A DNA stretch of 64,000 nt from Ferruginibacter sp. (GTDB taxonomy: Bacteria > Bacteroidota > Bacteroidia > Chitinophagales > Chitinophagaceae). The stretch is from positions 14,699 through 78,698 of the forward strand of contig JANXXM010000036.1 in NCBI GenBank assembly GCA_025350645.1, given 5' to 3'. Both the position numbers and the translations under genes were made by a program. The notes beneath the pieces are model-generated. The model did no database searches. It was given only the letters and a program-made list of their open reading frames with translations, and had not been told where the DNA came from. Below, piece after piece: positions 44,639 to 50,220 of the stretch. Within the stretch, counting starts at the first letter, position 1, and each line of letters begins with the position of its first letter.

Positions 44639-45328
44639 ATGAACGAGAAATTAAAAGATGCATTGATAAGAAACCGGCCAACGTTTCATAAAGTAGTAAC
44701 ATTTGATGACAAAAGAGATTCATTACTGCCCTTTAATTTTACAGAAAGTAATGTAGAAATTACAGCTGCACTCGTTGCTGATACCAATCATTTTTCTGCA
44801 TGGGTAAATAAAAAATTAATTGATGCAGGGGCTACTTATGGTATAGGTGGCTACAACGAAAACCGCACTTTATACAAACGCAGTACATTATTTTCCGGCA
44901 TAGAAGAAAGAAGCCTGCATTTAGGTACAGATATATGGGCGCCTGCAGCAACAGCAGTATTTGCGCCACTTGGCGGTATGGTGCATAGCTTTGCCTACAA
45001 TAATAATTTTGGAGATTATGGTGCAACAATCATTTTGCAGCACCAGTTAGATACTGTTGCTTTTTATACTTTGTACGGGCATCTTTCTCTTGCAGATTTG
45101 GTAGATATGCGCAAAGGAAAATTTCTTACAAGAGGAGAAGTTATTGGACATTTAGGCAAGCCAGAAGAAAATGGTAACTGGCCGCCGCACCTGCATTTTC
45201 AGATAATAGAAGATATTAGTTTTAATGAGGGCAATTACCCGGGCGTATGCAGCCTGCAGGATGCAGAAAAATATCTGTATAATTCGCCAGACCCAGATTT
45301 TATATTAAAGATGAATTCTTTTATTTAA
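44639..45328 (+). CDS. M23 family metallopeptidase
   Basis: LHLGTDIW (HxGxD), DYG.TIILQH, YTLYGHL, PPHLHFQ (HxH). Confidence 0.88.
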   Translation: MNEKLKDALIRNRPTFHKVVTFDDKRDSLLPFNFTESNVEITAALVADTNHFSAWVNKKLIDAGATYGIGGYNENRTLYKRSTLFSGIEERSLHLGTDIWAPAATAVFAPLGGMVHSFAYNNNFGDYGATIILQHQLDTVAFYTLYGHLSLADLVDMRKGKFLTRGEVIGHLGKPEENGNWPPHLHFQIIEDISFNEGNYPGVCSLQDAEKYLYNSPDPDFILKMNSFI

Positions 45329-45606
45329 TGCATTGCGCCCATTCTAAAATTTGAAGTGCAGGTGGCAAAACCAATAAGCATTAATAAACCGCCACTTATA
45401 AAAAAGCCCTGCGCATATCTTTTATCTTTTGCAAACAATAAAATAAGGCCAACAAATAACTGCAGCAGGCCGCCAAAAAAACCTACACTTCCTATAAATA
45501 CAAAAAAATCTTCGCTGCTATGCCCACCATTTGCAACAGCGAGTAATGCGCCAAATAAAAAAACAACAGCAAAACTGTATAATATTATTTTGGGTATTAA
45601 TTTCAT
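45325..45606 (-). CDS. Small 3-TM membrane protein with a single C-terminal Cys (paralog B)
   Basis: 93 aa; ...GLILLFAKDKRYAQGFFISGGLLMLIGFATCTSNFRMGAMH; clear paralog of 45645-45920. Confidence 0.8.
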   Translation of the reverse strand: MKLIPKIILYSFAVVFLFGALLAVANGGHSSEDFFVFIGSVGFFGGLLQLFVGLILLFAKDKRYAQGFFISGGLLMLIGFATCTSNFRMGAMH

Positions 45607-45644
45607 TGTATAAATTTATTATTTACTTTTTATTTTTTAAGATA

Positions 45645-45920
45645 TTATATTTTAGTTGCGCTGCATACGGCAAAACCCAGCATTATCATTGTGCCTGCGC
45701 TTAATAAAAAACCCTGGGCATAACGTTTATCTTCTTTAAATAATAAAAATAATCCGATTATTAAATCTACTACTCCGCCAAAAATATTTACTAAGCCAAA
45801 TGCAATTGAAAGATTTTGATACGAAAATGATGAAGATCCGCTTATCGTAGATGAAACCATTAAACTAAAAAAAAGTGCAATTCCAATATTTATCAGTAAA
45901 ATTTTTACAGGTAGTTTCAT
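45645..45920 (-). CDS. Small 3-TM membrane protein with a single C-terminal Cys (paralog A)
   Basis: 91 aa; ...GLFLLFKEDKRYAQGFLLSAGTMIMLGFAVCSATKI. Confidence 0.8.
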   Translation of the reverse strand: MKLPVKILLINIGIALFFSLMVSSTISGSSSFSYQNLSIAFGLVNIFGGVVDLIIGLFLLFKEDKRYAQGFLLSAGTMIMLGFAVCSATKI

Positions 45921-46012: not shown

Positions 46013-47419
46013 TTAAACTGGCACATGGCTTCTTTCTGCCTGCAGTACTTTTAAGTATTCTTCTTTATCATCCCTGTAAAATAAATTCATGGTTTCAAAA
46101 GGAATAATGCGCCCGTCCTTATGCACGATATGCACACAGCTTTTTTTAATAGACCTTACATCAAAATCGTACGCATCTATAAACCGCATAATAATAATGC
46201 GAAAAAGATTATCGTAACCCAGACCTGGCGCTTCAATTTGTGGTAAACAGCAAAGGAGTTGTTTCATATTTTCCTCTACCCTGTCTACCGAAATTCCTGT
46301 ACTAAAAATATCAATCATCTGTTCCTTTAACGCATCGTCCTGCTCGTACACAATGGTATTTTTGCTATTGTCTAAAAGCTGTACAGGATCTACATATCTC
46401 GTAAGCGGAAAAACTTTACCATTTACTTTTAATGCGTAACCCATTGCCAGCGCATCTGGGTTGCAGGGCACAGGAATAATATCATTTGGTTCAAAAATAT
46501 TGGTTTGCTCTAATATTTTTCTGCGTACATCGGTAAGCGTAATACGGTCCGTTGCGGGGTTAAAATTATCTGTACGTCCTGCTACCTGCGTGGGTTGAAA
46601 AGTAACCCCTCTTACACATTTTTGCTGTAAAGCAAATTCAATTATTTTTCCTATCTCCTCATCGTTTACTCCCTGCTGCAAGGTTACTACTAAAGTTGTG
46701 GCCAGGTTTAACGCATTCAAATGTTCCAGTGCTTTCATTCTTGTTGCCGTAAGATCTTTGCCCCGCAAGGCTTCTAGCGCATCGGGTTTAAATGAATCGA
46801 ACTGTAAATAAATTTCAAAATCGGGGGCATAAGTGGCAAGTTGCTTTGTAAATTCGAAGTCTTTAGCAATTCGTATTCCGTTTGTATTAAGCATTAAATG
46901 CTTTATCGGTTTTTTCTTTGCTATATCCATTATGGCAAAAAAATCCGGATGCACTGTTGGTTCGCCGCCGCTTATTTGCACCACATCTGGCGTGCCTTCA
47001 TTTGCCACAATAATATCCAGCATTTTTTCTACTTCTTCAACCGTTCTGTGCCTGCCGTAATGCGGGCTGCTCATGGCATAGCAGGTAGGGCATTGAAGAT
47101 TGCAGCGGTCTGTAATTTCTATAACAGTAAGGCAACTGTGCTGCTCATGATCTGCACATAAACCACAATCGTACGGGCAGCCATAATGTGTTTTTGTATT
47201 AAAATGCAATGGCGTTTCTGATGGCTTATTGTAATTGCGAATATTTTTATAATACTCAATATCTGTTGCTATTAACACTTTTTCAAACCCATGCTGCACG
47301 CAATTCTTAAGCATGTACACGTTGGCATTTTCAAAAACAATTTTAGCATCTACCCTGCGAAGGCAGGTGCTGCAAATACTAAGTGTGAAGTCGTAATAAG
47401 TGTATGGGCGTTCGGGCAT
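46013..47419 (-). CDS. Radical SAM enzyme of the Tes/GDGT-MAS (MJ0619, COG1964)-like family
   Basis: N-terminal CSTC...CVQH metal site, GCPYDCGLC..H...C auxiliary motif, CNLQCPTC radical SAM motif, SGGEPT, NTNG, YLQFD, C-terminal SCVH...GRIIPF. Confidence 0.85.
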   Translation of the reverse strand: MPERPYTYYDFTLSICSTCLRRVDAKIVFENANVYMLKNCVQHGFEKVLIATDIEYYKNIRNYNKPSETPLHFNTKTHYGCPYDCGLCADHEQHSCLTVIEITDRCNLQCPTCYAMSSPHYGRHRTVEEVEKMLDIIVANEGTPDVVQISGGEPTVHPDFFAIMDIAKKKPIKHLMLNTNGIRIAKDFEFTKQLATYAPDFEIYLQFDSFKPDALEALRGKDLTATRMKALEHLNALNLATTLVVTLQQGVNDEEIGKIIEFALQQKCVRGVTFQPTQVAGRTDNFNPATDRITLTDVRRKILEQTNIFEPNDIIPVPCNPDALAMGYALKVNGKVFPLTRYVDPVQLLDNSKNTIVYEQDDALKEQMIDIFSTGISVDRVEENMKQLLCCLPQIEAPGLGYDNLFRIIIMRFIDAYDFDVRSIKKSCVHIVHKDGRIIPFETMNLFYRDDKEEYLKVLQAERSHVPV

Positions 47420-47449
47420 GGTATTCGTTTTTATATTTGGATTTAGTTC

Positions 47450-47649
47450 TTATTCAAAATCTAATTTTGATAAACCAGACTGTCTACCTATCGAATTAAA
47501 AGTTGCTGTAGGCATTTCTTTCTCCCAGCAGGAATTATAACAGTCTATACCGGATTGCCCATTTTTCTTTATTAAACATGACTTCCATCTTGAGCCACAA
47601 AATATTTATCTTCTTTCTAAACGATATGTTGAGGTGTACTATTTTGCAT
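47450..47649 (-). pseudogene. Collapsed hicB-hicA toxin-antitoxin remnant
   Basis: MQNSTPQHIV*KEDKYFVAQ (HicB-like start, TAG where Trp is expected) fused in frame to DGSHV**...TVIIPAGR/KEMPTATFNSIGRQSGLSKLDFE* (HicA-like GSH motif and C-terminus, one frameshift). Confidence 0.65.
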
Positions 47650-47653
47650 AAAA

Positions 47654-48406
47654 TTATTTTCTCAAATATAATTTTTTTTTGCTAAAGTAAAGTGCTGCAT
47701 AATATCCAACCCCTGCTAAACAAGTAACCTGAATAGTAGATAATCCAACCTGCCAGGTATAATGCGGTTTTATAAAATCAATCAAAAAACGAAAACTGAT
47801 ATAAGCCATCATAAATATTTTGAATCGCATACCAGGTGGCAATATCCTGTGCTTTTCCACCTGCACAATACTTATCCAAAGCAATATCAAAAAAAGAATT
47901 TCGTACAGCGTTACGGGGTGCCGCAGGGTACCATCTCCCAAATTCATTCCTGTAAAAAACCCAGTAACAATACCGTAAGTTTCTTCATACACACCCATGC
48001 TAAAACAGCCTACTCTTCCTATTATTAACCCAAGTATCATAGGGTAAGTAAATAAATCGCCGCTGCTATTTTTTTCTTTAATAATTTTTTTGATCAGTTC
48101 TACGCCACACAATCCACCTAAAAAACCGCCAAGCACCGTTTTATTTTGATAGAAATACAATAATTTATTTGGTGCGGAAACCATCTCCGGAAAATTTTCT
48201 AATCCACCGATAAGCCTGCTTCCTATTATGGCACCAAATATGGCACCGATAATAATCCATGTTCTGTTTTCAGACTCAATAAGATCTTGTTGTTTTTTTC
48301 TTAAGAAAATAAAATAACGGAAAGCCACAAAAAAAGCAAGAAACTCAAAAATGCTATGCAGTGTAAAGTAATATTGGCCTGCAGATATAGTAATAGGAAA
48401 TGGCAT
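47654..48406 (-). CDS. Divergent prolipoprotein diacylglyceryl transferase (Lgt) family protein
   Basis: 7-TM; KTVLGGFLGG, IGRVGCF...YG, RHPVTLYE, YISFRFLIDFIK; ATG at 48406 (MPFPITI) preferred. Confidence 0.85.
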   Translation of the reverse strand: MPFPITISAGQYYFTLHSIFEFLAFFVAFRYFIFLRKKQQDLIESENRTWIIIGAIFGAIIGSRLIGGLENFPEMVSAPNKLLYFYQNKTVLGGFLGGLCGVELIKKIIKEKNSSGDLFTYPMILGLIIGRVGCFSMGVYEETYGIVTGFFTGMNLGDGTLRHPVTLYEILFLILLWISIVQVEKHRILPPGMRFKIFMMAYISFRFLIDFIKPHYTWQVGLSTIQVTCLAGVGYYAALYFSKKKLYLRK

Positions 48407-48421: not shown

Positions 48422-48601
48422 ATTGTTATAAAAGGATGGCAAAGAATTTGCAGATAATTTTGCTTCTAACCAATATCCCTGAAATACCAAAACAGCACAC
48501 AAAAAATATTATTCTACGATCCATAATTGATATAACCACATTATGGTATTGCTACCTATTTAATCTATACCTACTTTTAACTTTCTTAAAAACTACCGCA
48601 C

Positions 48602-49138
48602 ATGCATCAATTACTTAAATGCCTTGCAGCCACAATTATTGTTTGTTTTACCACAACTGCTTTTGCACAAAAAAAAACCGATACCGAATTTAGAAAGGGA
48701 TATATTTTACTGCTTAAAATAAATAACGCCGTTGTTACAAATTTTCACTCAGCACCAGATTTGTATGCCGGTGGGCTTGCACTTAACCCGCAGTTTGTAG
48801 TAGCAGAGCATGTACTACGGCTCGGTGCCAATGCAGGTTTCGTGTATACCAATAAAAAATTATCGGGCATATTTGGGCCTATGCTGGCACTTAAAATAAA
48901 AAACTTTGATCTTAAAAACCTGGCAGGGCTTGCAAATCTTCAACTCATTGCAGAGGCAAACTGGGGCACAGATAAACAACAAATGGCGGGTGGCGGGCTG
49001 GCACTGGAAGTGTTACAAAAAGCACAGCTCAGTTTTACAGTGCAGCGAGATTATAATTTAAACAGTTGGTGGCTGCAAACGCATATCGGTATAAAACTAA
49101 ATAAGAAGAAAAAAACAACCCCAATTTTTAATCAGTAA
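48602..49138 (+). CDS. Hypothetical exported protein (alternating beta-strand pattern, possible small outer-membrane barrel)
   Basis: Signal peptide ending AFA-Q; amphipathic strands. Confidence 0.7.
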   Translation: MHQLLKCLAATIIVCFTTTAFAQKKTDTEFRKGYILLLKINNAVVTNFHSAPDLYAGGLALNPQFVVAEHVLRLGANAGFVYTNKKLSGIFGPMLALKIKNFDLKNLAGLANLQLIAEANWGTDKQQMAGGGLALEVLQKAQLSFTVQRDYNLNSWWLQTHIGIKLNKKKKTTPIFNQ

Positions 49139-49182: not shown

Positions 49183-50220
49183 ATGAAAAAAGCATTGGTA
49201 ATAAGCGGCGGTGGCTCTAAAGGTGCATTTGCAGTAGGTGTAATAAAACAACTGGTGCAAAACTTTCCTATTGATTTTGATATGGTGGTGGGTACCAGCA
49301 CAGGCTCGTTAATAGCTCCACTGGCAGCACTCGGCAAAATTGATGATCTGCAAAAATTATATACTACCATTACCAACGATGATATAATTATTAAAGACAA
49401 CATTGGTAACCGGCTGGATGAAAATTCAATATTTGACGCCTCTCCTTTATTTGAAAAAATTTCGCAGATTTATACTGATGCTTTTTTTGATGAACTAAAT
49501 ACATCGGGCAAAGAAATTTATTTGAATACCGTGTGTTTGCAAACAGAAGAACTGGTGGTATTTACCAATGCGGTAAATCCTGTGCAATCAAAATTTTACA
49601 CTACTACAAAACTTACAAATGGCGATCATTTTAGAAAAGCTATACTCGCCTCTGCCTGCCAGCCTATTTTTATGAACCCGGTAAAAGTAAACCTGCATGT
49701 AGCTGGCGAAGCAAGACCAAATGATCAGTTTGTAGATGGTGGTGTAAGGGAGTATGCTGGCGTACAAGTAGCCATAGATGCAGATGCAAAGGAAATTTTT
49801 ACGATATTACTCTCTGCTAAAAATGGGGAGGTAAATAATACAGATTATACTACCATGTTCCCTATACTGGAGCAGACCATTGCCATTTTTACGACAGATG
49901 TTGGTAAGAACGATCTTATCATCCCTTTTCAATACAATGATGCATTAAAATATATAGATGCCGTAAAAAAGAAAATGAAAAGAGAAGGTCTTGCTATGGA
50001 TGATATCAACAGATATTTTACCATACAAGGCAAGGAAAGTCCGTTTGAAGATAAAGTACCTTTAAAAATTCATATTATACAGCCGGAAACAGCATTGGGC
50101 GGCGGTACTGGCGGGTTGGAATTTATACCTGCAGATATGAAAAAAATGCTGGCAAAAGGTGTGGCTGCTGCGGGGGATTTTGTGGCGTCATTAAAACCCG
50201 GGGAGGTAGACTGGGCCTAG
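49183..50220 (+). CDS. Patatin-like phospholipase
   Basis: GGGSKG oxyanion loop, GTSTG nucleophile, DGG catalytic Asp. Confidence 0.92.
   Translation: MKKALVISGGGSKGAFAVGVIKQLVQNFPIDFDMVVGTSTGSLIAPLAALGKIDDLQKLYTTITNDDIIIKDNIGNRLDENSIFDASPLFEKISQIYTDAFFDELNTSGKEIYLNTVCLQTEELVVFTNAVNPVQSKFYTTTKLTNGDHFRKAILASACQPIFMNPVKVNLHVAGEARPNDQFVDGGVREYAGVQVAIDADAKEIFTILLSAKNGEVNNTDYTTMFPILEQTIAIFTTDVGKNDLIIPFQYNDALKYIDAVKKKMKREGLAMDDINRYFTIQGKESPFEDKVPLKIHIIQPETALGGGTGGLEFIPADMKKMLAKGVAAAGDFVASLKPGEVDWA

Follow-up and report, generated by a model that had tools for sequence, protein, structure and literature searches.

What is the function of two very small, adjacent membrane proteins that lie behind a radical S-adenosylmethionine (SAM) gene and a second Lgt-family gene, each with a single cysteine a few residues from its C-terminus? 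This question is raised by a locus of Ferruginibacter sp. (GenBank assembly GCA_025350645.1, contig JANXXM010000036.1, positions 14,699 to 78,698 of the forward strand), a stretch of 64,000 nucleotides (nt) that we call the window; positions below count from its first letter. The two proteins, A and B, are most likely targets of a lipidation system rather than precursors of secreted peptides, and we propose that they are inner-membrane microproteins whose functional part is the C-terminal element of basic patch, helix, GFAxC motif and tail. The gene module runs on the minus strand in the order Lgt paralog, HicAB remnant, radical SAM gene, with B and A last. Its features are as follows (aa, amino acids; ORF, open reading frame).

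45325-45606, minus strand: small protein A, 93 aa; ORF with three membrane helices, a DKRYAQGF loop, a GFATC motif and the tail TSNFRMGAMH
45645-45920, minus strand: small protein B, 91 aa, a paralog of A; ORF with a GFAVC motif and the tail SATKI
46013-47419, minus strand: Tes/GDGT-MAS-like radical SAM enzyme, 468 aa; Pfam Zn_ribbon_HMPTM and Radical_SAM
47420-47653 (234 nt), minus strand: degraded HicB-like/HicA pair with in-frame stops and a frameshift, recognised by tblastn against the intact pair in locus L003
47654-48406, minus strand: Lgt paralog, 250 aa; PF01790 at 67.4 bits (cut-off 24.9)

Two tandem paralogs with a single cysteine near the C-terminus

The genes of A and B lie 38 nt apart, and their products share 35 of 89 residues (39% identity, BLASTP E 5e-18), which makes them paralogs; the genome holds no further copies, its small-protein family being A and B only. 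The sole cysteine of A is Cys83 (codon 45358-45360), residue 83 of 93 and followed by a 10-residue tail, and that of B is Cys86 (codon 45663-45665), residue 86 of 91 with a 5-residue tail after it. In both proteins the cysteine is preceded by the DKRYAQGF loop and an 18-residue hydrophobic stretch ending in GFA[T/V]. An AlphaFold2 model of A, built on a 21-sequence alignment, has helices at residues 3-25, 31-58 and 62-91, with a mean predicted local distance difference test score of 84 that falls in the tail. The distribution of charges predicts a topology with the N-terminus (MKLIPK) in, the first loop out, the KDKRY loop in and the C-terminus out: the mean number of lysines plus arginines is 2.4 in the 11 residues before the last helix and 0.29 in the tail, and by the positive-inside rule the cysteine would sit on the outer side of the last helix. 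Neither A nor B gave a significant family in Pfam or NCBIfam; matches of the small proteins to DoxX_3 (E 0.025) and DUF973 (E 0.09) were discarded as noise, and public annotation calls the small genes hypothetical proteins, if they are annotated at all.

Much of this had been anticipated by an original prediction made from the letters of this stretch, which described tandem paralogous ORFs with a common motif, one cysteine each behind a DKRY basic patch and a hydrophobic helix of about 18 residues, and a cysteine placed at the outer leaflet. The paralogy, the coordinates, the minus strand and the position of the cysteine were all confirmed, and the outer-leaflet placement agrees with the charge distribution. 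The motif string was right overall and contained one spacing slip: in S.G.....GFA.C, five residues and not four separate G from GFA.

The cysteine is the invariant residue of the family

Homologs were collected by word-indexed searches, which gave 24 and 18 clusters for the two paralogs, and a family profile of 48 sequences was then searched against 1.84 billion protein cluster representatives. It matched 800 cluster representatives at E<=1e-3 and 169 at E<=1e-10, all of about 80-100 aa. As the original prediction had expected, the cysteine is conserved, and it is the one invariant residue of the family: it does not vary in any of the three family alignments, and it lies 2-13 residues from the C-terminus in 148 of the 148 best library representatives.

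The element common to all these proteins is a basic patch, a membrane helix, G-[F/L/Y]-[S/G/A]-x-C and a short tail. Its statistics, anchored on the cysteine, were taken from 123 distinct proteins of the loci described below. Positions -24 to -17 are rich in lysine and arginine and are followed by about 16 hydrophobic residues. Glycine occupies position -10 in 67% and position -4 in 85% of the proteins; position -3 is F, L, Y or V, position -2 is S, G or A, and position -1 is V in 34, I in 27, A in 16, L in 14, T in 13 and S in 12 of them, while 94% have S, G, T or A at +1. One or two helices come before the last one, and some small proteins of 64-69 aa have only two helices in all. The tail has a median of 8 residues and, over locus proteins and library representatives together, a range of 1-13 residues except one of 29; no mature domain follows the cysteine, only short tails. 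Histidine is the last residue in 40% of members, in tails of the form N-[FMIL]-H, and is absent from B and from most subgroups.

Orthologs of A have a recognisable tail (CTANFSMNMH and variants), and those of B have tails that differ in length and in sequence. Mean pairwise identity in the group of A is 0.50 in the N-terminal part, 0.87 in the 22 residues before the cysteine and 0.48 in the tail; the corresponding values in the group of B are 0.55, 0.77 and 0.17. The loop with the last helix is therefore the best-conserved element. The tail, for which hypervariability had been predicted, is variable in the 91-aa group alone; in the 93-aa group the tail is as conserved as the N-terminal part.

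Some paralogs lack the cysteine, for example one at L005:5643-5984 and others in loci L044, L055, L056 and L068, with ends that read …FLPQY, …LNKY, …LRQY or …LQQY. They keep a KDK-type loop and the last helix, and each adjoins a cysteine-bearing copy in the loci examined.

The small proteins are linked to a radical SAM gene and an Lgt paralog

Loci around the radical SAM gene were taken from 401 sampled genomes of the phylum (30 loci; 31 genomes carry the gene) and from named genomes (80 loci), which are mostly Chitinophagaceae such as Ferruginibacter, Niabella, Segetibacter and Puia; linkage was counted over 111 Bacteroidota loci with a close radical SAM homolog. Of the 105 loci with enough flank, 99 have an Lgt paralog upstream in the same orientation, and a small hydrophobic ORF lies downstream of the radical SAM gene in 105 of 109. 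The strict pattern of hydrophobic run, cysteine and tail was satisfied in 94 of 109 loci, and the misses are mostly failures of the regular expression, as with LVEILIGYSVCSNMNFH. The order Lgt-family gene, (HicAB), radical SAM gene, small proteins was also found on two homolog-encoding contigs. The trio withstands a change of order, since in one family the Cys-tailed gene is placed between the two enzyme genes. When the neighbours in the 80 named loci were clustered, the only conserved genes of the module were the radical SAM gene (80/80), the Lgt paralog (77/80) and the small proteins; neither a protease nor an exporter was conserved among the neighbours of these loci. Most relatives show an overlap of 8 or 29 nt between the Lgt paralog and the start of the radical SAM gene, whose stop lies within a few bases of the start of the first small gene.

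The small proteins change quickly outside their C-terminal element. Their genes number one to four per locus. Loci whose radical SAM proteins are about 90% identical have Lgt paralogs of about 65% identity, with about 40% for the best small-protein match; at about 84% the values are 63% and 33%, and at about 72% an alignable small protein was found in only 2 of 20 loci.

Co-occurrence was examined in 151 Chitinophagaceae genomes, nearly one per genus, by searching for both the small-protein profile and the radical SAM protein. The profile was found in 23 genomes, the radical SAM protein in 23, both in 22 and neither in 127. The two exceptions have explanations in the assemblies, one genome being only 74% complete and the other carrying its radical SAM gene 458 nt from a contig end. 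Together with the linkage in the loci, this means that homologs of the small proteins do not occur independently of the lgt and radical SAM genes, a point on which the original prediction had staked itself. A single sampled genome, G403, has a non-adjacent pair, with the small-protein match on contig 1 and the radical SAM gene on contig 7.

The trio is also present in a second phylum, so that it is now seen in Bacteroidota and Actinomycetota. A tblastn search of plasmid records found a radical SAM homolog of 30% identity on a Mycobacterium branderi replicon, where the annotated order is Lgt-family protein, 151-aa hypothetical protein, 118-aa hypothetical protein and radical SAM protein. The two hypothetical proteins are tandem paralogs ending in RKPWSVGVGLGLIIGWALASILSGGLCTGLNPADYAG and RRKPSTKALGIGLMIGWALTSIITVGVCTGLNPAMYTGA, again with basic patch, helix, cysteine and short tail. 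A radical SAM gene of 37% identity on a Mycolicibacterium vanbaalenii plasmid (L120, 1806-5836) was rejected as a further example: it is not a trio, with no Lgt annotated, and the gene is followed by a methyltransferase and preceded by divergent genes for CcdA and a protein disulfide oxidoreductase.

Two other arrangements were observed around these enzymes. In 16 of the 80 named loci, for example at L051:2537-3238, the gene next upstream of the Lgt paralog, in the same orientation, encodes a predicted lipoprotein of about 210 aa with no Pfam match (…CKQSCSKTVSCPAY…WFPYD…); it is absent from the window. Distant clusters in two other families of the phylum (L033:2853-4352 and L034:2868-3936) have radical SAM proteins that are 40-44% identical. 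Their order is radical SAM gene, ICMT-family methyltransferase (PF04140), DUF4395 membrane protein and then Lgt paralog, the last seen in L033 only, as L034 ends before it. These clusters are without a Cys-tailed microprotein, and their DUF4395 proteins end in cysteine-rich tails (…TCCVIKKK… and …SCCTILKKR).

The radical SAM enzyme and the Lgt paralog

The only Pfam matches of the radical SAM enzyme are Zn_ribbon_HMPTM, Radical_SAM and Fer4_12. In NCBIfam it scored 328.1 bits against TrsS (cut-off 490, E 1e-98) and 280.9 bits against Tes (cut-off 450, E 1e-83), which is below the equivalog cut-off for both. It is homologous over its full length to GDGT-MAS of structure 7TOL (E 1.5e-65, query residues 11-319 and 333-458). 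Models of peptide maturases match the radical SAM core only (E 1e-11 to 1e-17), and no match to a SPASM or RRE domain was found in Pfam or NCBIfam. We take the enzyme to be cytoplasmic because it has neither a signal peptide nor a membrane helix. A large protein search with it returned 8000 candidates and was saturated by relatives of more than 88% identity, which made it uninformative on distant phyla and on fusions. A search with the NCBIfam TrsS model was uninformative too, because the radical SAM core is generic and gave matches in 13 of 14 control genomes. Most close homologs are annotated by the Joint Genome Institute as '7,8-dihydro-6-hydroxymethylpterin dimethyltransferase'. This mislabel stems from what was once assigned to MJ0619, a protein whose structure has since shown it to be GDGT-MAS. 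Public annotation otherwise calls the gene product simply 'radical SAM protein'.

The start of the Lgt paralog was set at the ATG at 48406 from the conserved MxFP start of its homologs; the ORF is open to a TTG at 48502. The gene is the second, compact Lgt-family gene of this genome, in which a separate housekeeping Lgt (117 bits) is encoded on another contig (L116:1162-2487). Researchers have defined a 13-residue Lgt motif of Y26, H103, G104, G142, R143, G145, N146, E151, G154, Y235, R239, E243 and R246, and have counted about 1300 genomes with two lgt genes (10.1101/2025.03.27.645668). We aligned the window paralog with the housekeeping Lgt of its own genome and five paralogs from other loci. 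The paralog is without the long insertions of the housekeeping enzyme and keeps the GG, GRxGC and P..LYE motifs, the last as RHPVTLYE; in E. coli numbering it retains G104, G142, R143, G145, R239 and E243.

Possible functions of the small proteins

In the reading that we prefer, and to which we would give about an even chance, the dedicated Lgt paralog has A and B as its substrates, and these are not cleaved. The paralog would transfer a diacylglyceryl group from phosphatidylglycerol to the cysteine thiol and form a thioether; signal peptidase II would make no cut, and the lipid-bearing microprotein would stay in the membrane. The cytoplasmic Tes-like radical SAM enzyme would then act on the hydrocarbon tails of this lipid, by analogy with Tes perhaps through carbon-carbon coupling to another tail. 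We infer the lipidation of the cysteine, the enzyme responsible for it, the lack of cleavage and the role of the radical SAM enzyme alike. Several features argue for this reading, besides the strict linkage, the distribution over genomes, the trio in a second phylum and the invariance of the cysteine. The Lgt paralog keeps what appear to be the catalytic GRxG and RHPxxLYE motifs (R143, R239 and E243), it is present in addition to a housekeeping Lgt, and the charge layout of the small proteins is that of Lgt substrates. Iso-branched fatty acids, moreover, are typical of Bacteroidota. Zeng et al. noted that the tail structure of iso-branched fatty acids is equivalent to phytanyl ends, and Tes is known to act on archaeal lipid tails (PMC8941075; PMC13459092). 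A more specific version, which we hold only tentatively and consider doubtful, is that the microprotein is S-diacylglycerylated by the Lgt paralog on a C-terminal 'reverse lipobox' cysteine, remains uncleaved, and has its acyl tails welded by the Tes-like enzyme to a lipid of the opposite leaflet, which would give a protein-linked membrane-spanning lipid.

Several observations weigh against A and B being such substrates. Paralogs without the cysteine exist, ending in FLPQY and similar. Between the radical SAM gene and the small genes, starts and stops frequently overlap by 3-7 nt, as would also fit a stoichiometric subunit. The Lgt paralog scores only 43.2 bits against TIGR00544 (cut-off 118.9), and a phmmer search of PDB sequences with it gave no match to solved Lgt structures at E<=0.01; its catalytic residues were therefore read from the alignment with the housekeeping Lgt and the published motif list. 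By that alignment it has His at Y26, Leu at H103 and Cys at N146, and it probably departs at Y235 as well. The changes at N146 and H103 do not by themselves mark the paralog because the housekeeping Lgt also departs at these positions, with GRIGC and FYGG where the E. coli enzyme has GRxGN and HGG. The cysteine is predicted to be periplasmic and the radical SAM enzyme cytoplasmic, so the two could meet only through the lipid tails, and it is hard to see what a lipidated protein consisting of an anchor and no other domain would be for. Finally, the evidence for the reading is that of sequence and gene context.

The main rival explanation, though one that we consider rather unlikely, is that the small proteins are subunits or adaptors which dock the Tes-like enzyme to the membrane and to the Lgt paralog; the substrate would then be a free membrane lipid, and the cysteine would be structural, redox-active or a transient carrier. 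The frequent start-stop overlap suggests equal dosage, the conserved basic DKRYAQGF loop on the predicted cytoplasmic side is a plausible docking surface, and it is consistent with an adaptor that Cys-less paralogs persist in some loci and that the variant clusters pair the two enzymes with other membrane proteins (ICMT-family and DUF4395). However, the small proteins evolve much faster than either enzyme and become unalignable beyond about 72% radical SAM identity, their copy number varies from one to four and their helix number changes, the invariant cysteine and the radical SAM enzyme are predicted to be on opposite sides of the membrane, and we found no such partner described in the literature on archaeal Tes/GDGT-MAS. 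Fast divergence, copy turnover, varying helix number and an invariant C-terminal element would thus fit a recognition element of substrate type better than a fixed subunit. If the small proteins are substrates, a CaaX-like variant can also be envisaged, in which a thioether lipid is placed on the cysteine, the tail is trimmed and the new C-terminal lipid-cysteine is perhaps carboxyl-methylated. The position of the cysteine 2-13 residues from the end in all members agrees with this, and a little support comes from the ICMT-family methyltransferase and the cysteine-rich tails of DUF4395 proteins in the distant clusters. Nevertheless, we regard it as improbable, given that neither an ICMT-family gene nor a tail protease is conserved near modules of the window type, the M23 peptidase gene next to A included. 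In addition, the tails of the 93-aa group are as conserved as the N-terminal part, and the N-[FMIL]-H tails end in histidine; conserved tails and a terminal histidine suggest that the tail is kept.

Whether the cysteine is a cleavage site can be judged from the residue before it. The lipobox is [LVI][ASTVI][GAS]C, and signal peptidase II needs a small residue at -1. This residue is T in A and V in B, and G, A or S stands there in 23% of the 123 locus proteins and 20% of the 148 library representatives. Among 288 N-terminal lipoprotein candidates of the same genome, collected by a crude screen for N-terminal n-h-Cys sequences, 64% have G, A or S at -1 (S alone in 111), and K or N comes after the cysteine. 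Because the small residue is so rare in the family, cleavage by signal peptidase II is unlikely. Cleavage would also release a product of only 2-13 residues. The end that the original prediction had called signal-peptide-II-like, with mostly V, I, L or T at -1, is thus unlikely to be a cleavable one. The same prediction had seen the logic of a ribosomally synthesized and post-translationally modified peptide (RiPP), with the helical part as leader and with Lgt and signal peptidase II acting at the cysteine to release either a diacylglyceryl-Cys lipopeptide or a radical-SAM-modified RiPP. The tandem paralogs do adjoin a radical SAM gene, in the 91-aa group no part varies more than the tail, the proteins have the n-h-Cys layout, and the genome encodes one LspA. 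This logic is nevertheless weak, and we consider such a precursor quite improbable: besides the residue at -1, tails go down to 2 residues and lack hypervariability in the 93-aa group, the radical SAM enzyme is of lipid type, homologous to GDGT-MAS over its full length and without a match to SPASM or RRE, the neighbourhood has no conserved protease or exporter, and the supposed leader is the conserved, membrane-embedded bulk of the protein. Very improbable, in our view, is a cysteine that serves as a periplasmic-face thiol for an intermolecular disulfide, such as an A-B dimer, or that binds metal with the C-terminal histidine, the link to Lgt being indirect. A single cysteine at the predicted outer membrane boundary, the last-residue histidine of many members and tandem paralogs that could pair would all suit this role, but the histidine is missing from B and most subgroups, and neither idea would explain why the small proteins are so strictly coupled to an Lgt-family enzyme and to a radical SAM enzyme of lipid type.

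Neighbouring genes in the window

Three further genes lie on the plus strand around the module.

44639-45328, plus strand: M23 peptidase gene, converging on A, with gene ends that overlap by 4 nt
48602-49138, plus strand: 178-aa protein of no family, divergent from the module and no conserved neighbour
49183-50220, plus strand: patatin-like phospholipase (PF01734, E 3e-26), with weak NCBIfam matches to anti-phage phospholipases and to those of CBASS (cyclic-oligonucleotide-based anti-phage signalling system)

The M23 arrangement recurs in locus L005 but is not general. We considered the M23 peptidase as a tail protease and rejected it, as it is not among the conserved neighbours of the 80 loci. 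The patatin-like phospholipase was likewise rejected as a member of the module, as it too is no conserved neighbour. The HicAB remnant parts the Lgt paralog from the radical SAM gene, two genes that overlap in most relatives, and the intact pair of locus L003 is found at the same site; the remnant is 65% identical to the first 20 residues of the antitoxin-like protein of that pair and 44% identical to a 61-residue stretch of its HicA. Promoter and terminator counts were no higher than in shuffled sequence, with a tool that does not model Bacteroidota promoters. No terminator was found between the genes of the module, which is compatible with one transcript and is no proof of it.

Significance and comparison with known systems

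No description of the trio or of the family of small proteins turned up in our literature searches. What is known of bacterial Tes homologs comes only from genome searches, and it has been suggested that they produce the membrane-spanning lipids used as climate proxies (PMC8941075). The family of Cys-tailed microproteins links a Tes-like enzyme and a second Lgt in one conserved module and offers a concrete candidate substrate. If the cysteine is lipidated, the rules by which lipoproteins are recognised, namely an N-terminal signal and a cleavable lipobox, would need to be extended, and bacterial Tes-like enzymes would be tailoring enzymes of protein-linked lipids, not synthases of bulk lipids.

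Compared with archaeal Tes/GDGT-MAS (MJ0619; PDB 7TOL and 7TOM), the window enzyme is homologous in the N-terminal zinc ribbon, the radical SAM core and the C-terminal domain. It differs in that it is bacterial and below the NCBIfam cut-offs, reads IIPFE where the archaeal C-terminal part has IIPFC, and is coupled to an Lgt paralog and Cys-tailed microproteins, a coupling that we did not find described for the archaeal enzyme. The Lgt paralog resembles MSMEG_5408, the second Lgt homolog of M. smegmatis, which has the changes Y26H and N146C (10.1101/2025.03.27.645668); the window paralog also has His and Cys at these two positions, a likeness established through the published residue list only. 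RiPP precursors such as those of sactipeptides and SCIFF are similar in being small tandem genes beside a radical SAM gene with a conserved cysteine near the C-terminus, whereas A and B are predicted to be membrane-embedded three-helix proteins with a lipid-type radical SAM enzyme, and the 'core' of their family goes down to 2 residues. The CaaX processing of eukaryotic prenylated proteins shares the cysteine a few residues from the C-terminus and, in the variants L033 and L034, an ICMT-family gene; in contrast, the predicted donor and enzyme here are of Lgt type rather than a prenyl transferase, the cysteine is predicted to face outward, and the window module has neither ICMT nor a tail protease. 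A further comparison is with bacterial prolipoproteins (PROSITE PS51257), which have the same basic patch, hydrophobic helix and outer-face cysteine together with an Lgt-family gene, and to which the small proteins are also lipobox-like at -3 (F/L/Y) and -2 (S/G/A). Unlike in prolipoproteins, however, the n-h-Cys unit of the small proteins is C-terminal and comes after one or two helices instead of standing at the N-terminus, V, I, L or T mostly occupies -1, the glycine at -4 is strongly conserved, the cysteine carries no mature domain, and the Lgt paralog is a dedicated one.

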